Shown here: positions 7,213-45,273 of the stretch, one piece after another
Position numbering within the stretch: the first letter of the stretch is position 1
How the letters are laid out: each line of letters starts with the position of its first letter
Made by a program: the position numbers and the translations under genes
NCBI GenBank assembly: GCA_965232515.1
Contig: CBDDPY010000002.1
Location: 6,464,001 to 6,528,000 of the forward strand
Reading direction: 5' to 3'
Length of the DNA: 64,000 nucleotides
Source: Alphaproteobacteria bacterium
GTDB taxonomy: Bacteria; Pseudomonadota; Alphaproteobacteria; GCA-2731375
Notes under the pieces: model-generated
Databases searched by the model: none
The model's input: the letters and a program-made list of their open reading frames with translations, nothing else
Told to the model about the DNA's origin: nothing

Positions 7213-9305
7213 ACTTTCAACGCGCACAACACCTGCTGATCGCGATTACGGCGCGCAACGACATCATGCTTGCGTGTCTGGTCGTCGCGGTGATCTTCAT
7301 GATGGTGATCCCGCTGCCGACGATCCTGATCGACACGTTGATCGCCATCAACATCATGTCGGGCATGTTGCTTCTTATGGTGTCGATGTACATCCCGTCG
7401 CCGTTGTCTTTCTCGTCTTTCCCATCCGTGCTGCTCGTGACAACGCTGTTTCGTCTCGCGCTGTCGATTTCCACAACCCGACTGGTCCTGTTGAACGCCG
7501 ACGCCGGCGAGATCATCTTCGCGTTCGGCAATTTCGTGGTGGAGGGAAACTTCATCGTCGGCGCCGTGATCTTCCTGATCATCACCATCGTGCAGTTCAT
7601 GGTGATCACCAAGGGCGCGGAGCGGGTCGCCGAAGTCAGCGCGCGTTTCTCGCTCGATGCCATGCCTGGAAAGCAGATGTCCATCGATGGCGACATGCGG
7701 GCCGGCGTCATCGACCTAGACGAAGCGCGTCGACGCCGATCCAACGTGGAAAAGGAGAGCCAGCTCTTCGGGTCCATGGATGGCGCCATGAAATTCGTCA
7801 AAGGCGACGCCATCGCGGGACTGATCATTACGGCCGTCAACATCATCGGCGGCATCGCCATCGGCACGACACAGCATGGCATGACCGCAGGCGAGGCGGT
7901 GGAGACCTACTCCATCCTGACCATTGGCGACGGGCTCGTAAGCCAGATTCCCGGCCTGCTGATCGCGATCACATCAGGCATAATCGTCACCCGGGTGACG
8001 ACAGAAGAGTCGACCAATATGGGCGCCGATATCGGCCGCCAACTTCTCGCCCAGCCCAAGGCGCTGATGATTGCCGGCTCGATGATGTTTCTGTTCGGGG
8101 TGGTCCCGGGTTTCCCGACGCCGGTGTTTTTCACGCTGGGAATTTTGCTCCTGTCCACCGGCTTCTTGCTTGATCGCATGTTCAAGGAGCGCCTGGCGGC
8201 CGGCGAAGAAGCGATGGTGCCGGCCATGGCGGCCGCGGGCGAGTCGCCCGAACAGGCGGCCAAACAGAAGATGGGAACGGAAGAAGAGTTTCTGCTCACC
8301 GTTCCCCTGCTCATCGACGTCGATGCAAACGTGGAAACAGCGATCAGCGCCGACGTGCTGAACGACGAGCTGATCAAGATCCGCCGGGCGCTCTATCTTG
8401 ACTTGGGCGTTCCGTTCCCCGGCATCCATCTTCGTTTCAACGACGAGCTCACAGACGGCCAGTATCAAATCCTTGTCCAGGAAACGCCGATGGCGACCGG
8501 CCAACTGCGTGCCGACCATGTCTTCTGCCGCGAAAAGGCCAGCCAGCTCGACCTGCTGGGAATTCAATACGAAAGCGGCGATGCATTTCTGCCCGGAAGC
8601 CCCACGACGTGGGTTCGAGAGGATTATGCGGAACAGATGGCGTCCGCAGGAATCGCCTATCTCAACATGTCTCAAGTCCTGACCTACCACCTCTCGTTCG
8701 TCCTGACCCGCTACGCTTCGGACTTCATTGGCATTCAGGAGACACGCTACCTGTTGACCCAGATGGAGGACCGGTTTGGCGAGTTGGTGAAGGAGGTGCA
8801 GCGCGTCCTGCCAATCCACAAGATCACCGAGGTGTTTCAACGGCTCGTTTCCGAAGAAATCTCGATCCGGGACCTGCGCACGATCAACCAGGCCCTGGTC
8901 GAGTGGGGTCAGAAGGAAAAGGACACGGTCCTTCTTTGCGAATACATACGCGGCAGCCTGCGTCGGTACATCAGCTACAAGTACTCCAACGGCCAGAACA
9001 TGCTGCCGGCCTATATTCTGGCGCCAGACACCGAGGAGCAGATCCGAAACGGCATCCGCCAGACCTCGGCGGGAAGCTACCTTGCGCTCGACCCCCGGGT
9101 GACGCAGAAGTTCGTCGAAACGGTCAAAGAGGTCGTAGGGGACTTGAGCAAGAGCCGTCAGCGCCCTGTCATCGTCGTATCGATGGACATTCGCCGTTAC
9201 GTCCGCAAACTGATCGAAAAGGACCTCTACGAACTGCCGGTCCTTTCCTATCAAGACCTGACACAGGAGATCACCGTCCAGCCCCTTGACCAGATCAGCG
9301 TCTAA
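7209..9305 (+). CDS. sctV: T3SS export gate SctV (YscV/LcrD, FHIPEP family)
   Basis: [59 protein letters not shown]. Confidence 0.97.
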
Positions 9306-9319
9306 GTCAAGCATTGGCC

Positions 9320-11584
9320 ATGGTGAGATTGGCCCGAATCGCTCCACTGTGGATTGCGCTCATTCTCGCGGTGCCGGCCGTCCCTGCCGCCGCGAAAGAC
9401 CACGAGAGCGTGCTGGTGTTGAATTCGTTCGGGTCGGGCGACTATTTTTCCGAAGCGGTGATCAGGGGCATTCTCGAAGCCCTGTCCGTGCGCGAAGGGC
9501 TTGTTCTTTACGTCGACCACCTCGATGTCGAGCACGACCCGGCTGGCCGCCAACTCGAGAGATTCCGCAAGCTGCTCGCCGATCAAGATGCAGAGAGCGT
9601 CGATGCGATCATCACCATCGACGAGCCGGCACTGTTGTTTGCCTTGCAAGAGCGGGAGTTGATCGGCGCACGAACCCCCGTCATCTTCGGCGACATCAAG
9701 AGCATGTCGCCGGCGGAGCTTAACGCGCTGCCGAACACGACCGGCGTGCTCGGCCGCTACAACATCGAGCGCACCTTGGAGGTAATGTCCGCGCTGCACC
9801 CCGACCGCTCTTCCGTCGTGGTCGTTGGCGACGGGTCGGCGCGAAGCCTTCGGCTGCGCCGCGACTTCGACCGGGCGCGCGTGCGTTTCGCCAACCGGTT
9901 CACATTCCAGGACTCAGACAGCGAAACGATCAGTGAGCTTGGCAACGAACTGGCGACTCTCGGAGCCGGTCACCTCGTCTTCTACCTGTCGTTCGTCGAA
10001 CAGGCAGCAGGGTTACGGCTGAGTTTTTTTGACAGCGTCAGCCGCGTTGCGCGCGCCGTCGACGCGCCCGTCTACGGCGCGGTGGAGGACATGGTCGGCT
10101 ATGGCATCGTCGGCGGATATCTACAGAGCTCGCAGCTTCTCGGCCAGACGCTGGGAGCACAAGTCATCGAGGTGCTGGACGGAAAGGATATCGCCGCGAT
10201 CCCCATCGTCGAGGAAACGCCGCACCGGTTTGTCTTCGACTTTCGCGAGCTCGCGCGGTTCGGGATCCCGTTGCGAAAGCTCCCGGCTGGGAGTCAGGTG
10301 ATCGAAAAGCCCGACACGCTCTTCTACCGGTATCGCGAGTACCTCTGGTTCATTTTTTTCGTCTTTGTGGCGCTCGTCTTCTACATCGTCCAACTCCGCA
10401 TCAGCATTCAAAAACGTGACAAGGCGCGTCGGGGATTGGAGCGCCTCGTTGAAGAAAGCGCGAACCCATTGTCGATCGACCAGCCCACGCACCTGCTGGC
10501 CGAGATTTTCGATCGGCTGAAGACCGTGGCTCCCTTTTTGGAGCCGCGCGGGCTTTACAGGGGCAGGAATTCGGCGGATGCCGGGAGCGTCATGGATTTT
10601 GTCCCATTCGGAAAGTTCAGGGGCGGGGCACAGGCGCCCAACCCGGCTCTGGTCAAGCGGGCGATCGAAACCGGACGAAACCAGTTCGACAGGAACGACG
10701 TCCTGCTGGTCTTGGGGAACGACAAACTTCCCGCGAACCTCGCCTATTTCCGGACGGCGCGCCGCCTGGATGCCTTCGATCAGCGGCTGGTCGACCTCTT
10801 TACCCGAAACATCTCGATTGAGTGTGACAACATCGAGGCGGTGCGCCTGTCGTCCTCGCTCGAGAGTGCGCATCAGCTTCAAGATGCCCTGCTGCCCAAA
10901 GAATTCGGCAAGATGGCCGAGGCCTTCGACGTCGACGTGCATGCCCTGGTACAGCCGGCCCGGCAGGTCGGCGGAGACCTGTACGACCTCTTCCCGCTAG
11001 ACGACGACAGATTGTGCCTGGTGATCGGTGACGTCGCCGACAAGGGCATGCCATCCGCCTTGTACATGGCCATGACCCGCACGCTCGTGCGCGCGGCTGC
11101 GGAAACGGAGGCGGATCCCGGCGTCATTCTGCAGAAGGCCAACACGGCGCTCTGCCGCGAGAACAGTCAGATGATGTTCGTCACGCTCTTCTGCGCCATT
11201 TATACGCGCGGTTCGGGTCAACTCGCCTATGCCAATGCGGGGCACTGCCCGCCATTCATACGCAGCGCCGATGGAGAAGTCACGGCCCTGCCTGTCCAGA
11301 CCAACATCGCGCTGGGCGTGCTTCATGACGCGACCTTTCCGGCGCAAGCGACGACGCTGCCGGTGGGTGCCACGCTGCTGATGTTTACCGATGGCATTAC
11401 GGAAGCGATGAACGCGTCCGGCGAGCCATTCCGGGAAGCCCGCGCCAAAGCGGTCTTTTCGTCCAACGGAGCCGCCTCGGCTCACGAGGCGACCACCGCC
11501 ATCGTCTCGGCCGTTGAAGCGTTTGCGGGTCAAATCCCGCAGTCGGACGACCTGACCTTGCTGTGCCTCCGTCGCGGGCCCTGA
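9320..11584 (+). CDS. Membrane sensor PP2C Ser phosphatase (RsbU/BtrU-like): signal peptide, periplasmic binding-protein-like domain, TM, DUF3369/GAF-like linker, SpoIIE domain
   Basis: PARQVGGDLYD, IGDVADKGMPSALYMA, MFVTLF, NAGHCPP, FTDGITEA, QSDDLTLL; hydrophobic N-terminus and central TM. Confidence 0.92.
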   Translation: MVRLARIAPLWIALILAVPAVPAAAKDHESVLVLNSFGSGDYFSEAVIRGILEALSVREGLVLYVDHLDVEHDPAGRQLERFRKLLADQDAESVDAIITIDEPALLFALQERELIGARTPVIFGDIKSMSPAELNALPNTTGVLGRYNIERTLEVMSALHPDRSSVVVVGDGSARSLRLRRDFDRARVRFANRFTFQDSDSETISELGNELATLGAGHLVFYLSFVEQAAGLRLSFFDSVSRVARAVDAPVYGAVEDMVGYGIVGGYLQSSQLLGQTLGAQVIEVLDGKDIAAIPIVEETPHRFVFDFRELARFGIPLRKLPAGSQVIEKPDTLFYRYREYLWFIFFVFVALVFYIVQLRISIQKRDKARRGLERLVEESANPLSIDQPTHLLAEIFDRLKTVAPFLEPRGLYRGRNSADAGSVMDFVPFGKFRGGAQAPNPALVKRAIETGRNQFDRNDVLLVLGNDKLPANLAYFRTARRLDAFDQRLVDLFTRNISIECDNIEAVRLSSSLESAHQLQDALLPKEFGKMAEAFDVDVHALVQPARQVGGDLYDLFPLDDDRLCLVIGDVADKGMPSALYMAMTRTLVRAAAETEADPGVILQKANTALCRENSQMMFVTLFCAIYTRGSGQLAYANAGHCPPFIRSADGEVTALPVQTNIALGVLHDATFPAQATTLPVGATLLMFTDGITEAMNASGEPFREARAKAVFSSNGAASAHEATTAIVSAVEAFAGQIPQSDDLTLLCLRRGP

Positions 11585-11664: not shown

Positions 11665-11780
11665 GTCGCCGGCCGTCGGGATCGCTAGAAATCACGCAGT
11701 GGAACTGGCCTTGCGCTCGGGATCGCCAAGCGACGTCCCTTCGCGATGCCATGCCTGCAATGGACAAGAGGTCTCTCGCG

Positions 11781-12254
11781 ATGCCCAACGACTCGACGCT
11801 TGCAGCCCTGCTGCACGACGCCGGCCCGCTGCTCGAAGACGCCGACATCTACGACTATCCGGACGCAGCCGCGCATCAGATCGTCTTTGACGACGACTTC
11901 GACATCATCCTCAAAGGTGACGCCGACCGCGAGGTGGTGGTGCTCGAGGGCGACCTCGGCAAGCCGCCGGAAGGGTCCGAGCCGCAGCTCTATCCGATGC
12001 TGCTTTCCCTTGGCCGGATTTGGGAGACCACCGGCGGGCTCCAGTTCTCCGTCGATCCGAACGACGGTGAAGTGGTCCTGCATTGGGATCTGGGTGCGGC
12101 GAACCTGGACGCCCAGAAACTGCACGCCGCCCTGCTCAGCTTCGCCGAACGCATGGTCATCTGGCGCGAGGTGGTTGCAAGCGGTGGCGTCGAGGATGAC
12201 GACCGCAGCATTCAGCCAAGCTCGGAGTCCGGCGGCGAGATCATCGTCGGCTGA
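11781..12254 (+). CDS. CesT/SycE-like class I T3SS chaperone
   Basis: Acidic 157 aa; LY.MLL.LGRIWETTGGL.FSVDP..GEVVL...L..F.E....W. Confidence 0.85.
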   Translation: MPNDSTLAALLHDAGPLLEDADIYDYPDAAAHQIVFDDDFDIILKGDADREVVVLEGDLGKPPEGSEPQLYPMLLSLGRIWETTGGLQFSVDPNDGEVVLHWDLGAANLDAQKLHAALLSFAERMVIWREVVASGGVEDDDRSIQPSSESGGEIIVG

Positions 12255-14630: not shown

Positions 14631-15107
14631 ATGTCGAACGCTGGACTCGTAAGGGATCTCATGTCCGAAATCGGGCCGATCCTGGAACTGCGCGGGATCG
14701 TGGAGATCAACGGCGAGGCGAAATGGGTGCTCGACCTCGATGGCGAGCACGCGGTCGTCGTGGAGCATGCGGCAGCCGACGATCGGCTGTTCTTCACTGC
14801 AGAAGCGGGCGTGCCAGAGCCGGCAGCGCGCCTGGTCTGCTACGAACTGCTGCTGGCCTACAACGCCCTGTGGCGGCAGACGGGCGGCGTGCGCATGGCC
14901 GTGAACGGCGAAGACGGCGCGGTGCTTCAGATCGCCGACGTCGCCGTCGAGGGCCTCGACGCGGCCGCGCTGGCCGAGGTTCTTGAGAACTTCTTCGGCA
15001 AGCTCGGCGAGTGGATGGACATCATCGCGATGGATCCCGACCAACGCGCCACCAAGGGCGCCGGAGGTTCGGCCACGTCCAATGGCGCCGGCGCACTGCG
15101 CGTCTAG
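14631..15107 (+). CDS. CesT-like class I T3SS chaperone
   Basis: YELLLAYNALWRQTGGVRMAV; GGAG RBS. Confidence 0.88.
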   Translation: MSNAGLVRDLMSEIGPILELRGIVEINGEAKWVLDLDGEHAVVVEHAAADDRLFFTAEAGVPEPAARLVCYELLLAYNALWRQTGGVRMAVNGEDGAVLQIADVAVEGLDAAALAEVLENFFGKLGEWMDIIAMDPDQRATKGAGGSATSNGAGALRV

Positions 15108-28136: not shown

Positions 28137-28607
28137 TCAACCCCTCAGATAGCCATGAACGTCCGGGCGTGGACGTAACGGCCAAACCGCGCGGTTATTG
28201 GCTAGATCGCGCAGCGTTGAAATCTCCCGGCGGAGGTTGTCAGTCACCGCGAAGAAATTGCTGACCAGCGAAATCATGTCCACGCCGCCGGCTGTCGTTA
28301 TGTCGACCACGTAGCGATAGACGATCACTTCACCGCTTTCGTCCAAACTGACGGTACCGCCGCGCAGCCTTTCGTTGTCTCCGTTCAACCGCAGCAGCCC
28401 GGCCAGCATCGACGGATCGTCCTGATGATGGAGGAATCCGACAACCCCGCTCAGGGTAAACGCGCTGCCTGTCGGCGGTACGTTGATGACGCATTCACCG
28501 CCGCCTTCGCGCTCAAGCACGCACTCGCCATCCTTGTCGAGAGCGAAGCCGCCGTCGGCGCCCGCACTGAACGCTGCAAGCGCACCGTTCACGCGCTCAA
28601 TCGACAT
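28137..28607 (-). CDS. CesT-like class I T3SS chaperone
   Basis: FALDKDGECVL...LLRLNGDNERLRGGTVSLD; ATG 28607 with GGGAG RBS. Confidence 0.85.
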   Translation of the reverse strand: MSIERVNGALAAFSAGADGGFALDKDGECVLEREGGGECVINVPPTGSAFTLSGVVGFLHHQDDPSMLAGLLRLNGDNERLRGGTVSLDESGEVIVYRYVVDITTAGGVDMISLVSNFFAVTDNLRREISTLRDLANNRAVWPLRPRPDVHGYLRG

Positions 28608-29544
28608 CGTGTTTTGCTCCCCATCCGCCGCGACCGACCGTGCTGGGCGATGCGTGCGGGCCGTCGTCCGGCGCTCGCTGCAAAAGCCAGACATTGCCGC
28701 AAACCGGGGCTCCGCCTTGCGTCCGCAGCACGGCATATCGCCATTCCACGATCGCAAAACCCGCAGATCGCGCGCACTCGTGAATGTACGAACTGGAATG
28801 GGCGTATCGGCCGTTCTTTTGCAGCGACCAGCCGTTGCCGCTGGTCGTTTCGACAGTGAAGGCAAAAAACCCGCTCGGCCGAAGCGCCTGCCAAACATCT
28901 GAGAAGAGCGTATCCAAATCGCCGAGATAGACCAGCACGTCCGACCCGATGCAAAGGTCGATCGTCCCGCGTTGCTGCCGAAGGACGTCGACAAAGTCGG
29001 CCTCTACCAGGCGGTCGTAGCACTGCTTTTGCGCCGCCAGCGCCAACATCTTAGGTGACAGGTCGACACCGATCAGCGTGCCGGCGATGGGCTTGAACAA
29101 GGGGCCGCAGATGCCCGTGCCGCAGCCGACATCGAGGATGACCGGCGCCGACGGCAACGTGCGCTCCGCGACAATGCCGATCAGAAGATTTGGCGCGCGG
29201 TACGACAAATCAATCATGAGGTGGCGCTCGAACTCGTCTGAGTAGTCGTCAAACAGCGCCTTCACATAGTGCGGCGACGCCCGCGTCGGCCGTCGCCCCA
29301 GCCGCGCCAGAAACAGGTGCATGTTGGCGCGAATGGCCGGCAGACAGCGACGAAACACCACGGCCAGTGCAGCCAGGACCAGAAACAGGTGGATCAGGCT
29401 CTGCGCATGCAAGGACAAGCTGGCTGTGTAGGAGGCCGCGACCATGCTCAAGCTGACGATCAGGATCGCGTCCCAGAACGCTGTGAGACATCGCCGCAAC
29501 GACGCCAATGCCTGCCACGGGCTGCTGGATGTGTTCTCGCTCAA
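28597..29544 (-). CDS. Class I SAM-dependent methyltransferase (COG4976-like) with N-terminal hydrophobic helices
   Basis: YVKALFDDY...F..HL...L.YRAP, ILDVGCGTGICG, GVDLSPKML, DVLVYLGDL, GRYAHS; start uncertain. Confidence 0.88.
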   Translation of the reverse strand: MSENTSSSPWQALASLRRCLTAFWDAILIVSLSMVAASYTASLSLHAQSLIHLFLVLAALAVVFRRCLPAIRANMHLFLARLGRRPTRASPHYVKALFDDYSDEFERHLMIDLSYRAPNLLIGIVAERTLPSAPVILDVGCGTGICGPLFKPIAGTLIGVDLSPKMLALAAQKQCYDRLVEADFVDVLRQQRGTIDLCIGSDVLVYLGDLDTLFSDVWQALRPSGFFAFTVETTSGNGWSLQKNGRYAHSSSYIHECARSAGFAIVEWRYAVLRTQGGAPVCGNVWLLQRAPDDGPHASPSTVGRGGWGAKHDVD

Positions 29545-34194: not shown

Positions 34195-34677
34195 TCAGAT
34201 CCGGACGAGCCCGGGTGCGTCCGGCGCCAAGTCGGAAGAGGCACCATCATTGGCCGCCCGCGCGGAGGTCGCGTGTCCGCCCAACTGGTCCGTTGCATGG
34301 CGTTCGCGCCAGAACCGCAGGACCTCGACAAAGCGGTCGAACTCGCGTCCGAGGACCGCGGCAGCGAGATCGTCGGTGTGGAAGACCCGGCACAGCACGA
34401 TTTCGTCGCTGACCGGGTCGATCGCCAAACTGGCGCCGCCGGTGCCGAGACCGACGAGGTTGGCCATCAGCAATTCTTCCATTACGGCGCTGCGGCCGTT
34501 GTCCGGCATGGGCCCGACTGCGGCGGTCATGGAGAATTGCGCGTCATCGCCGGTCGGACCGATATCGACGGCCATCTCGTCGTCGACCATGAGCTGGATA
34601 CCGTCGTCGGTGTCCAGATCGACCGTGTCGGCGCCGTGCGCTTGCGCCCACGCCGTCAGCATTTCCGCCAGAGCCAT
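34195..34677 (-). CDS. CesT-like class I T3SS chaperone
   Basis: ELLMANLVGLGTGGASLAIDPVSDEIVLCR...FDRFVEVLRFW. Confidence 0.9.
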   Translation of the reverse strand: MALAEMLTAWAQAHGADTVDLDTDDGIQLMVDDEMAVDIGPTGDDAQFSMTAAVGPMPDNGRSAVMEELLMANLVGLGTGGASLAIDPVSDEIVLCRVFHTDDLAAAVLGREFDRFVEVLRFWRERHATDQLGGHATSARAANDGASSDLAPDAPGLVRI

Positions 34678-34976: not shown

Positions 34977-36269
34977 GTGGCGACGACGGCGGCAGCCCAT
35001 CACCGGAACTTTGGCGTCCTGCTGGTTCAGGGCGTGTTCGTCGAAATCGCCCGAAACCTGGCCGGTCCACGGCTTGTCCTGCCGTTTCTCTATCTGGCGT
35101 TCGGAGCGCCGGTCTTCCTGGCTGGCGCTCTCATTCCCCTGATCCAGCTTTCACGGGTCGCGGGGCAGATCCTGTGCGCACCGTTCATCAACGCCACGCC
35201 GGTCCTCAAGTGGTACATGGTCACCGGGTCCGTGGTTATTGCTCTTGCCCTGTCGTTGGCAGGCCTGGCAGCCGACCTGACCTCTGTTCACCTCGTTGCC
35301 GTTACGTTTCTGATCGCCGTCGCCGGCGTCGGGTTCGGTCAGGCGATTAGCCGGATCGCCTTTCAGCATATGCTCGGATCCGTGATGACCGAGGACCGGC
35401 GCGGTGCACTGTTGTTTACGCAAACGGCGGTCAGCGGCGTTGTCGCGATTGCCGTTGCCTGGCTTCTGCATCGCATATTCTCAGATGTCGGATCCCTGGA
35501 CAGCCACCTGACCTTGTTGTGGGGCGGTGTTGTCGGCTATCTCGTCGCGGCCGTTCTTGCCACGGCATTGCAGGAGTCTCGAACCGGCGATGTGGAACCG
35601 CGCCAATCGAAGGCATCGTCGGCGCTTGCAGGTTACTTCGATGCGATCAGGAGCGGCACGGCGGAAACATTCCGCGAGCCGTGGTTTCGGCGCTTCGTGG
35701 TCGCACGGTTCCTGCTCGGCTCCGTTGAATTGGCGATGCCGTTCTATGCGATCCACGCCGCATCCCTCCACGCGTCGACGCAAGGAAGCCTGAGTGTCTT
35801 CGTCATTGCGGCAAGTGCAGGGCTGGTCGTTTGCGGGCCCCTATGGCAACGGCTCTCGCGCGTTTCGCTACCCGGCCTGCTGAACACGGCCTGCGCGTTT
35901 GCTGTGGTCGCAGGCGCCATCGCCATCGCCATCGAAAACGTGCCGTTGCTGCGCCACGAAATCTGCTACGGGCTCGTCTTCTTTTTGGTTTCGGCTGCAA
36001 ATCAGGGCGTTTCCAGCGCGCGCAAGATCTACCTTGCGGAGGCGGCGCCGCCAGCGCGGCGCGCATACTACATCGCCGGAGCGGAATCGGTTGTCGGCAT
36101 GATCGGCTTGCCGTTCGCATTCGCTCTGGCTGCGCTGGCCCACCTGCAGCATGTGGTCTGGCCCATTTACCTGCTGCTCGCAATGAACGCGACCGCCATG
36201 GTCTCTGCGCTGTTTCTGATGCCGACCCACCGTCATGATCACGAACGAACGGGTGTCGGCGCTCCATGA
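34977..36269 (+). CDS. MFS-type membrane transporter
   Basis: About 12 hydrophobic segments, RRG.L motif, F.RF..AR.L......PFY motif. Confidence 0.8.
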   Translation: MATTAAAHHRNFGVLLVQGVFVEIARNLAGPRLVLPFLYLAFGAPVFLAGALIPLIQLSRVAGQILCAPFINATPVLKWYMVTGSVVIALALSLAGLAADLTSVHLVAVTFLIAVAGVGFGQAISRIAFQHMLGSVMTEDRRGALLFTQTAVSGVVAIAVAWLLHRIFSDVGSLDSHLTLLWGGVVGYLVAAVLATALQESRTGDVEPRQSKASSALAGYFDAIRSGTAETFREPWFRRFVVARFLLGSVELAMPFYAIHAASLHASTQGSLSVFVIAASAGLVVCGPLWQRLSRVSLPGLLNTACAFAVVAGAIAIAIENVPLLRHEICYGLVFFLVSAANQGVSSARKIYLAEAAPPARRAYYIAGAESVVGMIGLPFAFALAALAHLQHVVWPIYLLLAMNATAMVSALFLMPTHRHDHERTGVGAP

Positions 36270-36617
36270 AATGTATGCACCCGGCGTCAGGCTCGGCCCC
36301 CGGACGTCTGCTGCTGTGAAGAACCTGTCCGGATCATCATCGCGTCCGCGATGGTTCGGTCAGATTGCACGTACAAATGCGCGCGGAAGACAATGTCATC
36401 AGCGGCGTGCGCCAGGGCGTAAGGCGGGTCGGATACGATGTCAGGATGCCGCGGTGGCCGCGTTGGCGCGGGCGCGCCCTGTGAAACCCCGCGGACAGCG
36501 CAGTCTTCTCCCGATCAGACGGCGCCGGACCGAGACTGGGTCAGGTGATCATCCTCATCGCACCGCGAGGGCCGGCATCGTTTTGGGATTGACAGCGCAA
36601 CGGCCTGGACCGCGATC

Positions 36618-36787
36618 AAGAGAGAGTAGAGCACGCTTACGAACTCTACTGCTGCAAGCGTGCTCTAGCCCCGTTGGGCGTTCGAGCCGGGGGGGCGGGG
36701 GAGGCAACCGACAAATGCTCGAACACCTTGGGGCGTTTCGGATCTCTCCTGGCTGACGGGTGAATTGCATTTCGCGCCGTCGTGATG
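36618..36787 (-). ncRNA. Putative small RNA with C-rich anti-SD loop and 3' terminator-like hairpin
   Basis: Box at 36822-36837 plus TACATT -10; stems GCCCC/GGGGC and GGTGTTCGAGC/GCTCGAACGCC enclosing CCTCCCCC; 12-bp stem TAGAGCACGCTT/AAGCGTGCTCTA followed by CTCTCTCTT; G-U wobbles fit the minus strand only; ends approximate. Confidence 0.55.
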
Positions 36788-36821
36788 CATCTCAATGTAT
36801 GGCGTTCCGGCACCGGTGTTG

Positions 36822-36837
36822 TTGACGAAGTTCGGAC
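36822..36837 (-). promoter_or_regulatory. Direct-repeat box driving the putative sRNA
   Basis: Minus strand GTCCGAACTTCGTCAA, TACATT 22 nt downstream. Confidence 0.65.
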
Positions 36838-36883
36838 AAGTTATCGGCCTCGTCAGGTCTTGACCGCATCCGCTGGTCGGCCG

Positions 36884-37309
36884 TCATCTTTCGGGGGTGT
36901 GCTCCATCCCCTTACCGAGCGCGCCGCTGGTATAGCGGTAACGCCAGTAGCTCAATGCCTCGACGAAAACGCTCAGTTCCCGATCGAAAACCCTGAAGGA
37001 GAGACCGTCATGGGGAAACTGCCGCCAAAGGGCGATCTCGTTGCGCTTCGTATCGATGCAGAGCGCGGCACCGCCTGTGGCCTCGCCCCGGAAATTGGCC
37101 TCCAGCAGCTCGCGGTAGACTGCCTCGCTGTCGTCAGCCGGGACGGGGCCGATCGCTGCGGCGACAATGAAGCCCCCCTCATCTGATGCTGCAACGATAT
37201 CGACAATCAGGTCGTCGTCGATGACGAGATGGCCGCCGTCGGCCTCGAGCGCGACGCTGTCCCGGCCGATGGTCGCGGCAAGCTCGTTCATCAGATCGGC
37301 CAACGCCAT
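36884..37309 (-). CDS. CesT-like class I T3SS chaperone with no adjacent effector
   Basis: YRELLEANFRGEATGGAALCID...FVEALSYW; ATG 37309 with GGAGA RBS; resembles 34195..34677. Confidence 0.9.
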   Translation of the reverse strand: MALADLMNELAATIGRDSVALEADGGHLVIDDDLIVDIVAASDEGGFIVAAAIGPVPADDSEAVYRELLEANFRGEATGGAALCIDTKRNEIALWRQFPHDGLSFRVFDRELSVFVEALSYWRYRYTSGALGKGMEHTPER

Positions 37310-37416
37310 GTCGCAATCTCCACCAATCCGGCGCCGGAGCGGGCCGGATCTGTTCCCAGTCTTGGCAGTTCGGTTTTTCGCATATCGCACGATCACATTC
37401 CGGCGGTGGCGGCGAT

Positions 37417-37432
37417 GTGACGAGATTCGGAC
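37417..37432 (-). promoter_or_regulatory. Direct-repeat box
   Basis: Minus strand GTCCGAATCTCGTCAC. Confidence 0.6.
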
Positions 37433-37519
37433 GTTCTCGCGAGCCGGCGCGGTCAATCCATCTGAAGCGGTTGCATCGCTGAACAGATCCCGCGCCAACC
37501 CGCACGCCGCATGTTCGCG

Positions 37520-38872
37520 TCAAGGTTCCGATACGGCAACCGCGCGCGTCGGTACGGGCCCGCTGCAGTGTGGTGAAGCGGACCCGCTATGACCTGTGCC
37601 GGCGTCCAGCGGCTTGCCGTGACGGCTCTTCAGCGTCAGCGACACCAGACACGACACGGCGGCAGCGACGACGAGGTACCACACAAATCCAAAGTCGTCG
37701 TGACTGCGGTCGATCATCCACACGGCCAACATCGGTGCGGTTCCGCCGAATATGGCGAAGGACAGGTTGTAGCTGATGCCGACTGCAGTGACGCGAACGC
37801 GATGTGGAAAGCTCTCGACCAGGGCGGAGGGGACGGACGCGGCCGCCAGCGCAATCAGGGCGGCAAGGCCAATCTGACCCGTCAGGATCAAGCCCGGGTC
37901 GGGGTGATGCATCAGCCAGACGAGCGGATAGGCGAGAAACACCAGTCCGGCATAACCGATGGCCATCATGCGCCGTCGACCGAACCGGTCAGACAGCAGG
38001 GCGAAAACCGGCATGAAGATGAAAAGCGAGGCGATCGAGATTGTATTGATCGTGAGTGCGGCGGACTGGGGTTCGTTGACCTGGTCGACAAGCCAACTCG
38101 CGGCGAAGACGAAAACGAGATAGTAGCCGACAGCATAGCCGACGGTCATGCCGACCCCTCTCAGGATTCCACGCCACTCTTCGCGCCAGGCTGAAAGGAG
38201 AGGCGATTTTTCTACCTTGGTTGCCGGTGTATCCGGCAGGCCGCGCCGCAACAGGTAGCCGACAATGGCGACCGCGACGCCGAACCCGAACGCAAAACGC
38301 CAAGCCGATTGGGCAAGCTCGCCGTCGGCGAACGTCATGCTCAGTACGGCACCGACGCCGGATGCCAGCAGGATTCCTGCATTCGCGCCGTTGAGGGCAA
38401 AAACGGAGAACAGCGCGCGGCGGCCGTGGGGCGAATGTTCGGCCAGATAGACGACCGAGCTTGTGTACTCGCCGCCCACGGCCAGACCCTGGGCCATGCG
38501 CAAGACGACCATAAGTATCGCCGCCGCAATCCCGATCGATTCGTAGGTGGGTAAAACGGCGATGAGCCCGATGGGCACAGCCATCATCAGAATTGACAGA
38601 ACCAGCGCCCGACTGCGGCCATGCTTGTCGCCGATATGGCCGAAGAGCGCCGCACCGACAGGGCGCATCAGAAAGCCTGCTGCAAAGGCACCGAAAGACG
38701 CGATAAGTGAAACCGTGGGGTCTTCCGACGGAAAGAACTGACGCGCAATGATCGGAGCGAAGTAGCCGTAGATCGCAAAGTCGTACCATTCGAGGACGTT
38801 ACCGACGGCGGCGGCGGTTGCCAGCCGTCGCAGCGGTTTGCCGGTCGTCTGCCCATGGCTTGAATTGGTCAT
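37520..38872 (-). CDS. MFS metabolite:H+ symporter (ProP/MHS family)
   Basis: GNVLEWYDFAIYG, GFLMRPVG, GDKHGR, QGLAVGGEY, SYNLSFAIFGGTAP. Confidence 0.93.
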   Translation of the reverse strand: MTNSSHGQTTGKPLRRLATAAAVGNVLEWYDFAIYGYFAPIIARQFFPSEDPTVSLIASFGAFAAGFLMRPVGAALFGHIGDKHGRSRALVLSILMMAVPIGLIAVLPTYESIGIAAAILMVVLRMAQGLAVGGEYTSSVVYLAEHSPHGRRALFSVFALNGANAGILLASGVGAVLSMTFADGELAQSAWRFAFGFGVAVAIVGYLLRRGLPDTPATKVEKSPLLSAWREEWRGILRGVGMTVGYAVGYYLVFVFAASWLVDQVNEPQSAALTINTISIASLFIFMPVFALLSDRFGRRRMMAIGYAGLVFLAYPLVWLMHHPDPGLILTGQIGLAALIALAAASVPSALVESFPHRVRVTAVGISYNLSFAIFGGTAPMLAVWMIDRSHDDFGFVWYLVVAAAVSCLVSLTLKSRHGKPLDAGTGHSGSASPHCSGPVPTRAVAVSEP

Positions 38873-38963: not shown

Positions 38964-39650
38964 TTAGGAGGGCACGCCGTCCTCGCTGACGACTCCGGGC
39001 TTGATGAGCCCCGACGTCGCATCTGCGAAACCGTGCAGCATGAACTGGATGGCGACTGCACACAGAAAAAGCCCAAGAATGCGCGTAGCAATATCGAGGC
39101 CGTTTTGACCCAGGAGTTTCTGAACCAGACCGCCTGCCAGCAGAACTGTCATTACGACAAGCGTGGCGCCCACGGCGACGATCGACATGGCGAGACTGGC
39201 GGTCAGAGACGTTGCGTGATGGGCAAAGACGATCACCGTACTGATGGTGCTGGGTCCGACAAACATAGGAACACCGATCGGAACCAAAATGCCGCTTAGT
39301 CGCGCTCCGGCAATAGCCAGATTGGAACCGTTCTCCGGAATGTCACGCTTCGCATCGGCGGTGACCTCGAGAGTGCCGCGCGCCATGCTCAGCCCCACCA
39401 GCAGGATGATAATTCCGCCCGCGATGCGAAACGCCGGCAACGTGATCCCGAAGAAACTCAGAACCATCGTGCCGGTGTAAATGAACAGGATGACAAATAC
39501 GGCGATGAAGACGCTCAAAAGAACTGCCATTTGCAGCCGCACAATCGGGCGTGCGTCGGATGTTGCGCTCACGAAGACCGGCAGATTGCCCAGCGGGTTC
39601 AGTACCGCGACTAACGCGGTGAAAAAGCTGATGTAGAAACTGGTGTCCAC
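38964..39650 (-). CDS. marC: MarC family integral membrane protein
   Basis: VLNPLGNLPVF, FGITLPAFRIAGGII, VPIGVPMFVGPSTI, TRILGLFL; GTG 39650 with GAAGGA RBS. Confidence 0.92.
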   Translation of the reverse strand: MDTSFYISFFTALVAVLNPLGNLPVFVSATSDARPIVRLQMAVLLSVFIAVFVILFIYTGTMVLSFFGITLPAFRIAGGIIILLVGLSMARGTLEVTADAKRDIPENGSNLAIAGARLSGILVPIGVPMFVGPSTISTVIVFAHHATSLTASLAMSIVAVGATLVVMTVLLAGGLVQKLLGQNGLDIATRILGLFLCAVAIQFMLHGFADATSGLIKPGVVSEDGVPS

Positions 39651-39733
39651 GGTTCGTCCTTCGGATCGGCAGACATCGCTGCGCGACGCATGACAGCTGT
39701 CGCCAATCCATACCGGACGCCGTTTGACCATGT

Positions 39734-39926: not shown

Positions 39927-42248
39927 TTAGAGATCCGCCATCATGGCTTCGATTTCGGCGATCAGGGCCGTCCGATCCGGGGTTGCCGCCCCGCTGCGGG
40001 CGACGTCGAGGGCTTCGCCGTAGAGGGTCCGTGCTTCCTCGGCAGCGTCATGTTCGGCAAGCACGTGGCCCGCCTCCTGCCAGTATTTGGCGGCCAGCGC
40101 CGGTTCATCGGAGGCCGAATAGTGCCGGGCGATCTGTTCCGGCTCGGCGGTTGCGATCTGCGGAAACGCCGTCACGATGACATCGGCGACCCGGCGGTGG
40201 TACGCGCGCCGTGTCCTAAGCAGCATGGCCTCATAGACGGCGTCGCGGACCAGGACATGGCTAAAGCTGTACTCCAGCGTTTCACCGCGACCCCGCTCTT
40301 GCAGAATTCCGGCGTCTCCCAGGGCGGCCAGGGCGTTGTCGAGTTCGTCATCAGCGAGGCCGGCGACCCGCGCTAGGAGCTCACGAGGAAACGCGCGGCC
40401 GATAACCCCCGACCACTCGGCTACCTCTCGCGCCTCCCCGATCTGATCGAGCCGGGACGCCAGCAACCCTTGCAGCGTATCCGGGATGGCCCTGTTGTCC
40501 GCCAACGCGTGTTCGCCCCGGGGATGGGATGCCGCCATGCGCGTTATTTCGCGCAGGTAGAGCGGGACACCGTCGCTGCGCTCCGCGATATCGTCGATCA
40601 TGGCCGCGGGAAAGACCCCAGCATGGGCCTGCTCGGTCAGGAGGCGCATGCACTGGGACCGGCCCAGCGGTTCAAGCGTAACCCTGGTGGCCTCTTGGAG
40701 CCCCGGAAGCGTGACCGCGTAGTTGCTTCTGAAGCTGAGCACCAGCATGAGCGGTATCTCGGCGACCCGCGGAAGCAATCCCTCGAGCGTGGCGAGTGTC
40801 GATGAATCGGCCCACTGAAGGTCGTCGACCAGGAGCACGCCGGGGGCCGCCTGTGCGCTGGAGCCGATCATGAAGAGAAGCGCTTCCTGAGTCCGCTCGC
40901 GCTGGCGCTCGGGATCGAGGCTCAGAGCGGGGCGCTTGTGGGCGGGCGCCGAAACCGAAAGGAGCGAGGCCAGCAGGGACAGTTGGTCCGTTTCTGGGTA
41001 GCCGATCTTGTCCACGAACATCTCGATGGCCCGCAACTGCTTTAGCGGCGGCGTTTCAAGTTCGACGTCCAACATCCGTCGCAGCAGATCCAGCAGCGGA
41101 TACAACGGCGTCCTCCGGTGGTAGGGAGAACATTGGACCCGAAGGACCCTGTCTTCGGGTATGGCGATTTGCGACAGTAGCTCTTCACACAGGCGCGACT
41201 TGCCGATGCCGGGATCACCGCTCAGCACAACGATCCGACCCGTGCCATTCGCGGCACGGCGCCATTCGTTCTTGAGATGGATCAATTCCCAGTCCCGGCC
41301 AACGAAGGGCGGCTCCTCCCAACCGCCGGGCTGCAGCCCGCGGCTGTCCGCTCGGCCAACGGCGAAAAGCCTTTGCGGCTCTCCGTCCACGCAGAAAGTT
41401 GCGGCCTCGACCAGCGGAAACCGTTCCTCCAGGAGACCCGCCGTGACCGTATCCACGATCACGCGGGCATCCGCCGCATCGTGATCATGGTCGGGCGCAA
41501 AGACCGGATCGATCCCGATCAAGAGCTGGCCTGGCATCCCCGCCGTACCAGGGTCGACAATCGCCCGGCCGGTTGCGATGGCGACCGTCGCCTTCAGGTC
41601 CAGGCTCGACGCCAGGTCGATCAGGTTGCGTGCCGCCATTACGGCGACAATCGCGGGCTTTTCTGCGGCACGCGGGTAGCCGACATGGATCACCACGCGG
41701 CGGGCAGATTGCTGCGCGATGCTGCATGGCAGTCCGGCGAGGATATCCGTACACGCGTCGGCAAACGCATGCAGGGCCTCCTGCAACGCTTCGGGATCGG
41801 CTTTTGTCTCCGAGCGATCCAGACGGCATTCCAGCACTGAAACAAAGCGCCGTTCGGGCTTGCCGCGAGCCGGAGCGTCATGTTCGCCGGCGTCTGCCGC
41901 ATCATCGACGGGCGGCGCGCCGTCCGCGGGCGTCGCTTCTTCGGACTGAACGTCCGCTACGAAGCGATAGCCCCGGCCGTGGAACGTTTGAATCGGCTTG
42001 TCGGCGCTTCTGCTTTGACCGAGCGCGTGGCGTATGCGGCTCAGGCACCGGCTGAGCGTGCCGTCGCTGACGTAGATGCCGGGCCAGCAGCTCTCGAGCA
42101 GTTCCTCGCGCGAGACGACCCGCTCGCGGTTCTTGATCAGGAATACGAGGACGTCGAAGACTTTCGGTTCCGTCGGCAGCCATGTATCGCCGTGCAGCAG
42201 CTGGCGCCGGGACTCGTTCACCACAAATTCGCCAAAGGAATAAATCAT
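39927..42248 (-). CDS. Transcriptional regulator: OmpR-type winged helix, degenerate class III cyclase fold, AAA/STAND ATPase, short helical tail
   Basis: VFDVLVFLIKNRERVVSREELLESCW...LSRIRHALG...GRGYRF; FVGRDWEL, GDPGIGKS, LLVDDLQWAD, F.H.LVRDAVY. Confidence 0.88.
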   Translation of the reverse strand: MIYSFGEFVVNESRRQLLHGDTWLPTEPKVFDVLVFLIKNRERVVSREELLESCWPGIYVSDGTLSRCLSRIRHALGQSRSADKPIQTFHGRGYRFVADVQSEEATPADGAPPVDDAADAGEHDAPARGKPERRFVSVLECRLDRSETKADPEALQEALHAFADACTDILAGLPCSIAQQSARRVVIHVGYPRAAEKPAIVAVMAARNLIDLASSLDLKATVAIATGRAIVDPGTAGMPGQLLIGIDPVFAPDHDHDAADARVIVDTVTAGLLEERFPLVEAATFCVDGEPQRLFAVGRADSRGLQPGGWEEPPFVGRDWELIHLKNEWRRAANGTGRIVVLSGDPGIGKSRLCEELLSQIAIPEDRVLRVQCSPYHRRTPLYPLLDLLRRMLDVELETPPLKQLRAIEMFVDKIGYPETDQLSLLASLLSVSAPAHKRPALSLDPERQRERTQEALLFMIGSSAQAAPGVLLVDDLQWADSSTLATLEGLLPRVAEIPLMLVLSFRSNYAVTLPGLQEATRVTLEPLGRSQCMRLLTEQAHAGVFPAAMIDDIAERSDGVPLYLREITRMAASHPRGEHALADNRAIPDTLQGLLASRLDQIGEAREVAEWSGVIGRAFPRELLARVAGLADDELDNALAALGDAGILQERGRGETLEYSFSHVLVRDAVYEAMLLRTRRAYHRRVADVIVTAFPQIATAEPEQIARHYSASDEPALAAKYWQEAGHVLAEHDAAEEARTLYGEALDVARSGAATPDRTALIAEIEAMMADL

Positions 42249-42297: not shown

Positions 42298-44436
42298 TCA
42301 TTCGACTATGTATTGCAGGGTGCGCGGCGTCGTCCGTTGTCCCGCCTGTATCAGGCGACTGGGACCGGAAAGCCGGCGGCGGAATTCGTCCGTGACCCGG
42401 CGCGCCTGCGAGGCATCGTGAATGAGTCTCGGTGTGATGATCACCAACAGCTCCGTCCGGTCGTCCTTGTTGCTGGTGGACCGGAACAGGGTGCCCGCAA
42501 CGGGAATGTCGCCCAGAAGCGGAACCTTGGTCCGTGATCTCTCGCGCCTGTCGCGGATGAGTCCGCCAAGCGCAACGCTCTGGCCGTCGTCGACGGCCAC
42601 GGTCGTGGTGATGATGCGCTGTTGTATCGTCGGTGAATCGATTCCCGACGTGACGGTCGAAATCACGTCGCTCACTTCCTGATCGATCTCCAGTATCACC
42701 CGGCCCGACGAACTGACGCGCGGGCGGACCTTGAGAATGACACCCGTGTCCTCCTGCGTGATCGAATTGACAATCGGCGCGTCCGGGTCGGACGTGCTAA
42801 CCACGCTTTGGGTCGCGATCGGTACCTTGTCGCCGACGCTGAGCAGGGCCTCCCGGTTGTCGAGTACTAGCACCGATGGGGTCGAGACGATGTTGACATC
42901 CGTAACAGAGTCCAGGGCATTGATTGCCGCGCGGATGTCGCTCGTAGCGAAAATCGCATTGAAGCTCGGAATGAGCGCGGCCGGCTGTACCGATCCGGAT
43001 TGGATGCCTGTGAAATTGAAGTTGAAATTCCCGGTCTCGAAGAACCATCTGACACCAAAGTCGAGATCATCGTTCAAGGTTACTTCGGCGATAGTCGCCT
43101 CCAACAGGACCTGATGAGCGACCTGATCAAGCCGGGTAATAAGCTGGCCGATTTGCTGCTGCTCCGCCCCGGTACCGAAGGCAATAATCGCGTTGCTGAC
43201 GTCGTCCGCCACGACCCTGGGTGGCGCGCCGGTACGTTGCCCGCCACTCGCCTCCGCCTCGGCCGCGCCCGATGTCGCCCCCGTCGCGGTCGCATCCGTT
43301 ACGACTGAAGGCCCGAACGACAGCAGTTCCGCAAGGACCGGAAGGAGATCGACGGCCGTGCGGTTTTCGAGATGGTAAATGACGGCACGACGGATCTCCT
43401 GGCCCGCAGCCGATTCGAACCGCTCGATCCAGGCCTCGGCGCGGGCGACATAGTCCGGCTGCGACGAAATAATGAGGATTGAGGACAGGGTGTCGTTGGG
43501 CACGAAGCGCACCACGCCCTCGAGCGCGCCGCCTTCGTAGGCATCGAATACCTGTTCGAGCTCACTTGCGATCTCGGATGGGTCCGCATTCCGGAGCGTA
43601 TAGAGCGAAACCGATTTGTCCCGAAGCACGTCGATATCGAATGTGCTGACGGCATCGAGGATCGCGTCGATATCCGCGCCGCTGCCGCCGGCGAACAAGA
43701 TGTTGCGCTGCCTGTTCGAGCTCATGGTCACCGACGGCGAGACGATCGGTTGCAGGATGCGGATCATTTCTGTCGCGGAGATGAACTTCAACGGCAAGAC
43801 GTACACGGCCCGGTCCGCGGGGCGCGTGCGTGCGCTCAATCGAAACCGGGACACCCCAACGGTGGCGGGGATTGCCTCGACGACATAAACGTTGTTTTCC
43901 AGTTTCAGCGACAGGCCATTCAATTCCAGGACAGTATTGAATGTCTCGAGCAGGTCGTTGCGGTTGAGCGGACTGGTGGTGAGCAACGTGATCGTGCCTT
44001 GGGCATCGGGTGCAAGTGAGTAGCTGGCACCCAACGTGTCGCCCAGAATCGCCTTCGTGGCCTGCGCGACGGGAACCTCCATCAGGTTGACAGAATAGGT
44101 GCCGTCGTCGACCTGTTGTATTGTGATTTCGGGCAGAAGTCTGCCGGTTCGGCCGATGAATTCGCCGCTTCCAATCTGGCGATACGCAGATCGCGTGCCC
44201 ACGTTCCCCGACGGTGCGGCCGGCGCTGGAGTCGCACCAGGCGTTCGTCCTGCGGTATCCGGCGGTACGGGCTGGACCGGGTGGAGATCGCCCGGTTCCG
44301 TTTTCGACGCCACGCAGCCGACGAGGATCAGCATCGCAGCCAGAAGAACCGCCGGCCCCGTGGCAACTGCGCGGCAACACGTCCTGCCAAAAGACGGCGG
44401 CGCCCTGTGAACGCTTCCGAACAGCATCTTCAACAC
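42298..44436 (-). CDS. gspD: GspD/XpsD-type lipoprotein secretin (start approximate, GTG 44436 or ATG 44427)
   Basis: Lipobox LLAAMLILVGC; N0-N3 domains (AILGDTLGASY, PLKFISATEM); QVLLEATIAEVTLNDDL.FGV.W, SPTIQQR.I.T, VPLLGDIPVAG.LF, RTELLVIITP. Confidence 0.88.
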   Translation of the reverse strand: MLKMLFGSVHRAPPSFGRTCCRAVATGPAVLLAAMLILVGCVASKTEPGDLHPVQPVPPDTAGRTPGATPAPAAPSGNVGTRSAYRQIGSGEFIGRTGRLLPEITIQQVDDGTYSVNLMEVPVAQATKAILGDTLGASYSLAPDAQGTITLLTTSPLNRNDLLETFNTVLELNGLSLKLENNVYVVEAIPATVGVSRFRLSARTRPADRAVYVLPLKFISATEMIRILQPIVSPSVTMSSNRQRNILFAGGSGADIDAILDAVSTFDIDVLRDKSVSLYTLRNADPSEIASELEQVFDAYEGGALEGVVRFVPNDTLSSILIISSQPDYVARAEAWIERFESAAGQEIRRAVIYHLENRTAVDLLPVLAELLSFGPSVVTDATATGATSGAAEAEASGGQRTGAPPRVVADDVSNAIIAFGTGAEQQQIGQLITRLDQVAHQVLLEATIAEVTLNDDLDFGVRWFFETGNFNFNFTGIQSGSVQPAALIPSFNAIFATSDIRAAINALDSVTDVNIVSTPSVLVLDNREALLSVGDKVPIATQSVVSTSDPDAPIVNSITQEDTGVILKVRPRVSSSGRVILEIDQEVSDVISTVTSGIDSPTIQQRIITTTVAVDDGQSVALGGLIRDRRERSRTKVPLLGDIPVAGTLFRSTSNKDDRTELLVIITPRLIHDASQARRVTDEFRRRLSGPSRLIQAGQRTTPRTLQYIVE

Positions 44437-44679
44437 ATGTCCGCCACGTTTCAGGTCCGCTGCGTAGCCCGCCGCAAGTCGCCTGTCTCGCCAGTGCCAC
44501 GCTAATCCAAGTTGCGTGAGTAGTCGAACGCGAGCGCCCGCAAAGGTTCTCGAGCCGTCTGTCGAACTATTCATGAGAACGCAGTCGACGGCCGCTAATC
44601 CAGGAGCCGGTCGTTGGTGGTGCAACAAGTTGGGCGTCGACGTCATCGCTTTTCGTACCATCGCCAGACGTCTCAGACC

Positions 44680-44706
44680 GTCCGAATAACGTCCGAACAC
44701 GGTCCG
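44680..44706 (+). promoter_or_regulatory. Triple direct-repeat box
   Basis: GTCCG-AATAAC-GTCCG-AACACG-GTCCG (11-bp period). Confidence 0.75.
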
Positions 44707-44781
44707 AATTCGTAAGGCCAAAAGTGTCCGCTGGAATGCAATCTTTGACGGGTCTCGCCGGGACAGAAGGCGAAGGTGCGC

Positions 44782-45249
44782 ATGAGCGACAAGGCGACCG
44801 CGGAAAAACTGTTTCAAGAACTCGGGCCCCTGCTTGACCCGGCTGCCATTGTCTATGACGACGCGGCCGCCCAGTGGGCCGTTGTCATCGACGATCGGAC
44901 CCGGATCGATGTGGGTTTCGATGAAACCGCCGGGCAGTTCGTCTTCGCCCTCGATCTTGGTCAGGTGCCCGACCGGAGCGCGGACACGGTACATGAGCTG
45001 CTGCTGCGTTTCAGTTTCTTGTGGCGCGAAACCGGAGGTCTGACCGCGGCGCTCGACGCCGAGGGCCGGGCTGTCCTGATGTACAGACATGCGGTGCAGG
45101 ACCTTGAGCTGCAGCGTTTGCACACCCTGTTGCAGAATCTCGTCCATCACCGTCGCATTTGGGCGGACCTGATCGCCAGGTCGGAGACGGAAGCGATCGA
45201 CGCCGCGGCGGCCGAGAGCCCGGCCCCGTTCGGCGCCATAAAGGTCTGA
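44782..45249 (+). CDS. CesT-like class I T3SS chaperone
   Basis: ELGPLLD...HELLLRFSFLWRETGGLTAALD; resembles 14631..15107 and 11781..12254. Confidence 0.88.
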   Translation: MSDKATAEKLFQELGPLLDPAAIVYDDAAAQWAVVIDDRTRIDVGFDETAGQFVFALDLGQVPDRSADTVHELLLRFSFLWRETGGLTAALDAEGRAVLMYRHAVQDLELQRLHTLLQNLVHHRRIWADLIARSETEAIDAAAAESPAPFGAIKV

Positions 45250-45273
45250 CACCGACACGGGAGGAGCGCGATC

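Follow-up and report, generated by a model that had tools for sequence, protein, structure and literature searches.

The 64-kb stretch of contig CBDDPY010000002.1 analysed here (the window) is a type III secretion (T3SS) island within a 7,386,992-base alphaproteobacterial genome of about 65% GC. On its minus strand, directly behind the gene of a CesT-family chaperone (36884-37309; Pfam CesT, E 2.9e-16) that starts with the ATG at 37309 after the ribosome-binding site GGTGGAG, lies an element (36837-36618) made up of a promoter box, a -10-like hexamer, two predicted stem-loops (SL1 and SL2) and a pyrimidine tail. Chaperone gene and element are convergent to MFS1 (34977-36269, plus strand), an MFS-type transporter gene whose frame is backed by GC phase and codon score. 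An earlier note on this DNA had read the element as a regulatory RNA induced together with the secretion system, and all features named in it are present on the minus strand between 36837 and 36618. We give about even chances to the interpretation, drawn from sequence, that the element is a new non-coding small RNA (sRNA) gene of the T3SS regulon of this island. It probably encodes a regulatory RNA, because a promoter of its own of an island-specific type, a stem-loop with an anti-Shine-Dalgarno motif and a terminator-like hairpin are found together and are all kept in one related island.

An island-specific box precedes the element

The box motif consists of direct repeats of GTCCGAA in an 11-bp phase. 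Of 25 genomic sites with the pattern GTCCGAA-N4-GTC, seven fall into the window, where 0.22 would be expected; the stricter form GTCCGAA-N4-GTCCG occurs six times genome-wide, five of them in the window. Judged by this distribution, the box is a real, island-specific regulon motif. The copy at the element (GTCCGAACTTCGTCAA, 36837-36822, minus strand, half sites extending to 36816) is built from the half sites GTCCGAActtc and GTCaACAacac in 11-bp phase and reaches a position weight matrix (PWM) score of 21.5, which places it among the top eight in the window. The -10-like hexamer TACATT (36799-36794, minus strand) follows at positions 39-44 from the box start, and hexamers of the T-A---T type are found about 32-44 nt past the box start at the window boxes. 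A scan with the sigma-70 consensus finds no -35/-10 pair at the promoter of the element, as is expected of an activator-dependent promoter. As far as a motif can tell, the element has a promoter of its own, as a generic sRNA gene should.

The element differs from the remaining box sites in what follows the box. The other boxes of the window, weaker variants included, lie 74-129 nt 5' of the first open reading frame (ORF) of an operon; these ORFs have ribosome-binding sites and mostly encode CesT chaperones. Such pairs are formed by the boxes at 4858 (first ORF at 4942), 11649 (11751), 14535 (14631), 19561 (19663), 34791 (34677), 37432 (37309), 44702 (44776) and 51987 (51858). The box at 37432 (37411-37432, minus strand) is the chaperone's own promoter, 123 nt before the ATG, and has an orthologous box at 8040 in L045, a syntenic metagenomic locus described below. 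In the distant islands L025-L027, an ORF preceded by a Shine-Dalgarno sequence starts 74-115 nt downstream of seven of the nine box sites examined, and at the remaining two the ORF starts at 282 and 392 nt. Behind the element's box in the window, a minus-strand ORF with 80 amino acids (aa) or more does not start until 570 nt away, antisense to MFS1, and an ORF at the usual distance is missing in both genomes carrying the element, that of the window and L045. This confirms the separate box with a TACATT hexamer and no credible ORF behind it that had been reported. Three perfect GTCCGAA copies (44680-44708) are found in a motif region (44680-44712, plus strand) between the secretin gene and the CesT operon there, and further box positions are 52245 in the window and 2080-2102 in L045.

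The island also encodes a regulator of 773 aa (39927-42248, minus strand) that combines an N-terminal OmpR/ToxR-type winged helix (Pfam Trans_reg_C) with an AAA_16 ATPase domain and has no receiver domain. It is likely the activator of the box promoters, the single argument for this link being that its orthologues co-occur with the boxes in L045 and in L025-L027. Direct repeats at such a spacing fit winged-helix activators of the OmpR/PhoB family, and HilA likewise has an N-terminal OmpR/ToxR-type winged helix without a receiver domain. The orthologues share 75%, 53% and then 35-44% identity with the regulator, and some of them are named from Acuticoccus, Minwuiales and Hyphomicrobiales.

Predicted structure of the minus-strand RNA

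A transcript from this promoter would start near 36787 (±3, placed from the -10 position alone), and its 5' part (36787-36744) holds the sequence GGAGAG, which is able to pair with the 3' tail. SL1 (36734-36668) is predicted to consist of a 5-bp outer helix (GCCCC at 36734-36730 with GGGGC at 36672-36668), an 11-bp inner helix (GGUGUUCGAGC at 36727-36717 with GCUCGAACGCC at 36687-36677) and a loop of 29 nt (36716-36688) with the C-rich run CCUCCCCCGCCCCCCC at 36704-36689. The loop contains two C-runs that are predicted to be unpaired (mean P(unpaired) 0.74 in the window, 0.70 in L045). Within it, a predicted CGG/CCG mini-helix puts CCUCCC into an apical loop in both the window RNA and the L045 RNA, with P(unpaired) of about 1.0 in each, so that the anti-Shine-Dalgarno motif proposed earlier is indeed expected in an exposed position in both homologues. 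SL2 (36667-36627) is a perfect 12-bp stem with a short extension and a hairpin energy of -24.9 kcal/mol (-27.3 kcal/mol in L045). Together with the pyrimidine tail CUCUCUCUU (36626-36618; UCUUUCUCC in L045) it is a candidate intrinsic terminator.

The minus-strand RNA of 36800-36610 folds with -81.1 kcal/mol (z -5.33, 0/200 shuffles as good), compared to a z of -2.71 for the plus strand of the same stretch (1/200 shuffles as good), which bears out the claim of a strong fold favouring the minus strand. In the window, one G.U pair is found in the inner stem of SL1 and two in SL2, and one bulged C is the only other irregularity. Two of these three G.U pairs become Watson-Crick pairs in L045. The statement that mismatches are G-U only on the minus strand is therefore correct for the window genome, but it does not extend to L045, where SL1 has a C.A mismatch. 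On the opposite strand this pair would be G.U, which leaves a balance of only 3 to 1 in favour of the minus strand when wobble pairs are counted.

The element is non-coding and present in a single copy

Coding potential was judged with a codon log-odds score for which 1,099 long ORFs from the host genome served as the training set. Seven real genes reach +0.14 to +0.34 per codon on it, and their wrong frames come to about -1. The three minus-strand frames of the interval 36270-36883 score -0.40, -1.00 and -1.02, and those of the L045 element -0.90, -0.78 and -0.23. Six-frame translations in which stops were read as X revealed neither a paralogue nor protein similarity in the own genome (best E 0.062). 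Two small ORFs overlap the element, one of 71 aa (36770-36555) and one of 41 aa that would be leaderless, from an ATG at 36790 near the predicted transcription start. That a small protein is the product of this locus is nevertheless hardly credible to us. The ORFs score -0.84 (71 aa) and -0.53 (41 aa), the ATG at 36770 has no preceding Shine-Dalgarno sequence, and the 71-aa ORF, the one covered by the Pfam scan, matches no Pfam family. In L045, both ATGs are absent and indels of 8 nt and 1 nt break every frame, so that no ORF is conserved. The 71-aa ORF that had been held out as a competing explanation thus neither looks translated nor has a counterpart in L045.

Within its own genome the element is single, both by BLAST (the next match is 22 nt long) and by covariance model (next E 0.049, 18.6 bits). 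A dispersed repeat of the REP or MITE type, which the earlier note had raised for the hairpins, is ruled out by this single full-length copy. Rfam release 15 at gathering thresholds gives no match in the whole 64-kb window, and a search of 36200-37200 at E <=10 returns six chance-level matches (eukaryotic, viral and frameshift models), the best with 16.2 bits against a threshold of 84. By these comparisons the element belongs to no described RNA family.

Selective conservation in a diverged syntenic island

L045 was retrieved with an alignment of 15 regulators, using the regulator as anchor. It is syntenic with the window in the order secretin, regulator, MarC, chaperone, element and next chaperone-effector pair, with 68-81% nucleotide identity; at the protein level the regulator is 75% and the chaperone 62% identical. 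The match of 37344-36620 to L045 8113-8874 ends at the SL2 tail. Its box at 8649 reads GTCCGAAaaccGTCCGTA and is followed by the hexamer TAAGTT at the same offset of 39-44 as TACATT in the window, while the spacer between box and -10 is identical in only 7/16 positions. The 5' part shares 29/49 positions and contains an 8-nt indel. SL1 with its flanks (36743-36667) is identical in 64/77 positions and its loop in 25/30. All 12 pairs of the SL2 stem are retained, 11 unchanged and one as G.U to G-C, and the SL2 loop agrees in 2/13 positions only. For comparison, the chaperone gene agrees in 304/423 nucleotides (72%) and in 83/141 third codon positions (59%). The identity of SL1 (83%) is thus above that of third codon positions in the chaperone (Fisher p 2.6e-4). 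Comparison with a homologous island thus adds new support for the element, with promoter, SL1 and SL2 stems all kept.

Chaperone and element are kept together as one block whose flanks both differ between window and L045. The MFS-type transporter gene MFS2 (37520-38872, minus strand) on one side has no match in L045, and MFS1 on the other side stands where L045 has two other ORFs. A conserved 14-mer, ATCAAGACCTGACG (36884-36840 compared to L045 8560-8598), is part of the 3' untranslated region (UTR) in the window and of the chaperone's last codons and stop in L045; the two chaperones differ at their C-terminal ends because of an indel.

The joint inheritance could also mean that the element is the 3' UTR and terminator module of the chaperone mRNA made from the promoter at 37432, with SL1 and SL2 stabilising or ending this transcript and the second box being internal or vestigial and yielding no separate RNA with a function. 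The box lies only 46 nt past the chaperone stop (36884), and because no hairpin stands between stop and box in the window, chaperone transcripts should reach SL2. We regard this explanation as unlikely, however. Box and hexamer are kept at the exact offset of 39-44 despite a spacer identity of 7/16, a pattern expected of a working promoter, and a plain terminator needs no 29-nt loop upstream whose sequence is 83% conserved.

A related concern is that the element is a decaying and functionless relic, either the 5' end of an effector gene or a dead promoter, which looks conserved since only two lineages are compared. Frame -1 over 36883-36270 contains only three stops and has the least negative score of the three frames (-0.40); moreover, there are two homologues only and no covariation. 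The score, however, resembles that of a comparison intergenic region (-0.30) and is unlike that of genes, and protein similarity is found nowhere in the genome. In a strain about 97% identical to the window (sequencing run X4), the 10 differences over 36251-36627 are split 3, 3 and 4 across the codon positions of frame -1. Conservation is also patterned, in that stems and SL1 loop are kept and the SL2 loop and spacers are not, with SL1 exceeding third codon positions as given above. A relic is therefore rather improbable in our view.

Evidence against a trans-acting RNA, and the alternative of a possible leader

Several observations weigh against the sRNA interpretation. SL2 is not a textbook terminator, since a C interrupts the tail and a simple terminator scan does not call it, neither in the window nor in L045. 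The 30 pairs compared between window and L045 comprise 25 invariant pairs, three with a one-sided change that are still paired, two with an unpaired cell and none that is compensatory; with two sequences only, a shuffle control on such pair counts cannot discriminate. RNAalifold reports one compensatory pair, which we do not trust because it belongs to a long-range helix reaching beyond the tail. The L045 RNA folds less strongly (z -2.56, 3/200 shuffles as good). The drop in similarity behind the tail is no clean neutral control, as it may mark a rearrangement. The covariance model R1 gave chance-level matches only (E >=0.31) in 17 other related loci including L025-L030, a count that leaves aside the window, L045 and the reverse strand of their own SL2, and it found nothing in the genomes of 100 relatives. 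Of the runs listed as containing the stretch, none is recorded as RNA. No reads from the polyA-type RNA runs X7 and X11 map to 35500-38500, which is no test of transcription.

Possible targets add to this list. The top genome-wide duplex predicted for the RNA lies in the translation initiation region (TIR) of a short-chain dehydrogenase (SDR) gene (contig C2, 2905881), with -47.0 kcal/mol compared to -40.8 kcal/mol at the 0.1 percentile. The pairing covers 17 nt, including one G.U, and spans the Shine-Dalgarno sequence. With a C-rich probe, chance alone should produce a match of this kind in a genome of 65% GC, and we take it as chance also because its G-run encodes the C-terminus of the upstream gene. 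The predicted pairing makes the SDR gene a lead only, and no target is convincing.

The most pertinent objection comes from L045 itself. There, two same-strand ORFs without Pfam family, ORF100 (9049-9351) and ORF288 (9389-10255), follow 170 nt past the tail. The box could hence serve downstream secretion-related genes through a long 5' UTR in which SL1 and SL2 form a regulated terminator, that is, a cis-acting leader or attenuator. In the window the downstream genes would have been lost, with convergent MFS1 in their place, and the leader would be orphaned. ORF100 and ORF288 have codon scores of -0.02 and +0.18, borderline and coding compared to about -1 in wrong frames. For ORF288, which could be the cognate effector that the chaperone lacks, the genome of the window offers no match; the one match of ORF100 there is weak and lies outside the island, at a distance of about 3.4 Mb. 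The idea of the earlier note that the RNA stands in place of an effector has accordingly to be qualified: no such ORF exists in the window, but in L045 the element lies between the chaperone and these two ORFs.

We consider such a leader possible but doubtful. A GC-rich hairpin of 12-14 bp with a pyrimidine tail would stand between promoter and ORFs, and no alternative anti-terminator pairing was identified. ORF100 may have a weak box of its own in L045 (GTCAGGCTTTCGTCC at 8963, 86 nt upstream, with TAGCTT at offset 39-44), although its PWM score is only 5.5 (rank 39 of 33,698 positions). In the window the element is intact, with an SL1 83% identical to that of L045, though no gene stands downstream, and the block of chaperone and element persists while both flanks have changed. 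A loss of the downstream genes would not be very recent, because the X4 strain shares the gene-less downstream sequence.

Proposed action and targets of the putative sRNA

If the element is an sRNA gene, its action can be pictured as follows. The winged-helix/AAA activator would bind the 11-bp-phased GTCCGAA box, and transcription would start near 36787. An RNA of about 170 nt would fold into SL1 and end at the SL2 hairpin and its pyrimidine tail. SL1 would expose CCUCCC and the second C-run in unpaired loop positions. Through them the RNA could pair with mRNAs from other parts of the genome at G-rich ribosome-binding regions, and translation of these mRNAs would fall once the secretion system is switched on. 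Occlusion of such regions seems the likeliest action, by analogy with sX13, the cuckoo RNAs and InvR. An Hfq gene is found in the genome.

The suggestion that the RNA silences the island's own genes is not borne out, as island TIRs are not enriched among predicted duplexes and the best of them ranks 663 among 11,251 crude TIRs by in-silico duplex energy. Feedback of the InvR type on the ribosome-binding site of the activator was also discarded. The SL1 loop pairs with the regulator leader (-200 to +30) no better than with shuffles (window z +0.27, L045 z -0.24). The idea of a CsrA sponge was rejected, since a CsrA gene was not found in the genome, which is 96% complete. The C-rich loop probe brought up a dispersed element by matching its G-runs; it consists of 10-14 consecutive G and then TCGCGC..GGAGATCGCGGAACAAC and is found in at least five places in the own genome C2 (3380475, 5808362, 5392746, 3128244 and 2628102).

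The chaperone next to the element is the sole one of the six CesT-type ORFs scanned in the window without an effector-sized ORF behind it, in agreement with what had been noted before. The other five directly precede a same-strand ORF of at least 413 aa without Pfam family (11751-12254, 14631-15107, 28137-28994 with a weak match, 34195-34677 and 44776-45249). Orphan chaperone and box-driven RNA might thus form one conserved two-part module, in which an RNA and not an effector is the chaperone-linked output of secretion activation; we hold this to be quite improbable. In enteropathogenic E. coli, the export of effectors releases CesT, which goes on to bind CsrA. By analogy, one possibility is that the module acts as a switch coupled to the secretion state, with a base-pairing RNA in the role of CsrA. 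A search of 5.8 billion proteins for homologues of the chaperone returned only the chaperone itself. Pattern searches for its relatives gave 172 stretches in a genome contig collection and 297 in metagenome contigs, none of which was confirmed.

Comparison with known systems

PMC11925239 describes InvR as an sRNA of the Salmonella SPI-1 T3SS island that is activated by HilD and HilC and pairs at the hilA ribosome-binding site. The element resembles it in its position inside a T3SS island, in the island's own transcription factor as the presumed driver (judged from the box) and in the proposed action at ribosome-binding sites. It differs from InvR in that no sequence or Rfam similarity is found, that complementarity to the leader of its own regulator is not in excess and that the host is an uncultured alphaproteobacterium.

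sX13, according to PMC3771888, affects T3SS expression and is Hfq-independent. The element shares with sX13 the C-rich motifs of at least four C in a loop, the GC-rich genome, G-rich ribosome-binding regions as expected targets and the link to T3SS. Unlike the three small C-rich loops described there for sX13, the element has a single C-rich loop of 29 nt and no Rfam match. Its gene lies within the island under a T3SS-type box.

The cuckoo RNAs of Alphaproteobacteria carry, as defined in PMC4615179, two to four adjacent hairpins with CCUCCUCCC in each loop. By that definition, host class and the anti-Shine-Dalgarno-like CCUCC core in a hairpin loop are shared; in contrast to cuckoo RNAs, the motif of the element is found on one hairpin only and reads CCUCCCCCGCC, not CCUCCUCCC, and no Rfam family is matched. 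In SL2 the loop reads AGCAGUAGAGUUC in the window, with an unrelated sequence in L045, and the cuckoo motif is absent. Kinship to AbcR or cuckoo RNAs, to which the earlier note had pointed, is therefore not supported, and the element is in neither family, with the Rfam comparison counting in so far as release 15 contains AbcR and the cuckoo-related alphaproteobacterial families.

DapZ-type sRNAs have their own promoter inside or just past the 3' end of the upstream gene, and HilD controls DapZ. Similarly, the putative promoter of the element is found 46 nt past the upstream stop codon, and the predicted terminator would be shared with the upstream mRNA. Unlike in the DapZ type, the gene upstream encodes a T3SS chaperone, and the element is known from sequence alone.

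Should the sRNA interpretation be correct, the element would be a riboregulator wired into a T3SS regulon of host-associated marine Alphaproteobacteria that is so far undescribed, although no literature search was made for the box. The two defining parts of this regulon are an activator with winged helix and AAA ATPase but without receiver domain, and the 11-bp-phased GTCCGAA repeats. An sRNA of this kind would help to find out which functions such bacteria shut down while injecting effectors. It would also extend the theme of InvR, DapZ and sX13, island-controlled sRNAs with C-rich or anti-Shine-Dalgarno seeds, to a new lineage and regulator type. The pairing of box and regulator may be more broadly useful, since promoters under secretion control can be predicted with it in several metagenome-assembled genomes of Alphaproteobacteria.

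Distribution and island setting

DNA homologues of the element were found neither in the genomes of 60 relatives nor among PLSDB plasmids. In the 60-genome search, three genomes and one more site of the own genome match 33-55 nt of the chaperone coding part only (E 1.5e-5 to 7.8e-4). The sequence in run X3 is identical to the window. The contigs of the X4 strain leave 36628-36912 uncovered. Among runs X1-X4, the stretch is found in runs whose label names a host-type organism, for which polyA RNA-seq libraries exist as well, and the strain of about 97% identity comes from a run carrying another organism label. Small shares of the stretch are also present in two marine metagenomes.

Core secretion genes of the island are SctN (2986-4329), a fused HrpJ/TyeA gene (4942-6075), SctV (7140-9305), the secretin (42298-45258) and an SseC-like translocator (47849-49474). 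MFS1, MFS2 and a MarC-family gene (38964-39731, minus strand) sit in the middle of the island amid its effector and regulator part, and of these the L045 stretch keeps MarC only. Because neither is matched in the available L045 stretch, MFS1 and MFS2 look like later insertions. The module of box and chaperone start that is single in the window (34791-32391) occurs twice in L045 (10274-12188 and 12586-15015), where the first copy appears fused or truncated and contains a 536-aa ORF from 10578. Directly after SctV, the island encodes a protein of 756 aa (9314-11584, plus strand) with a SpoIIE-type PP2C phosphatase domain and DUF3369, which may be a regulator of the secretion system in the style of partner switching.

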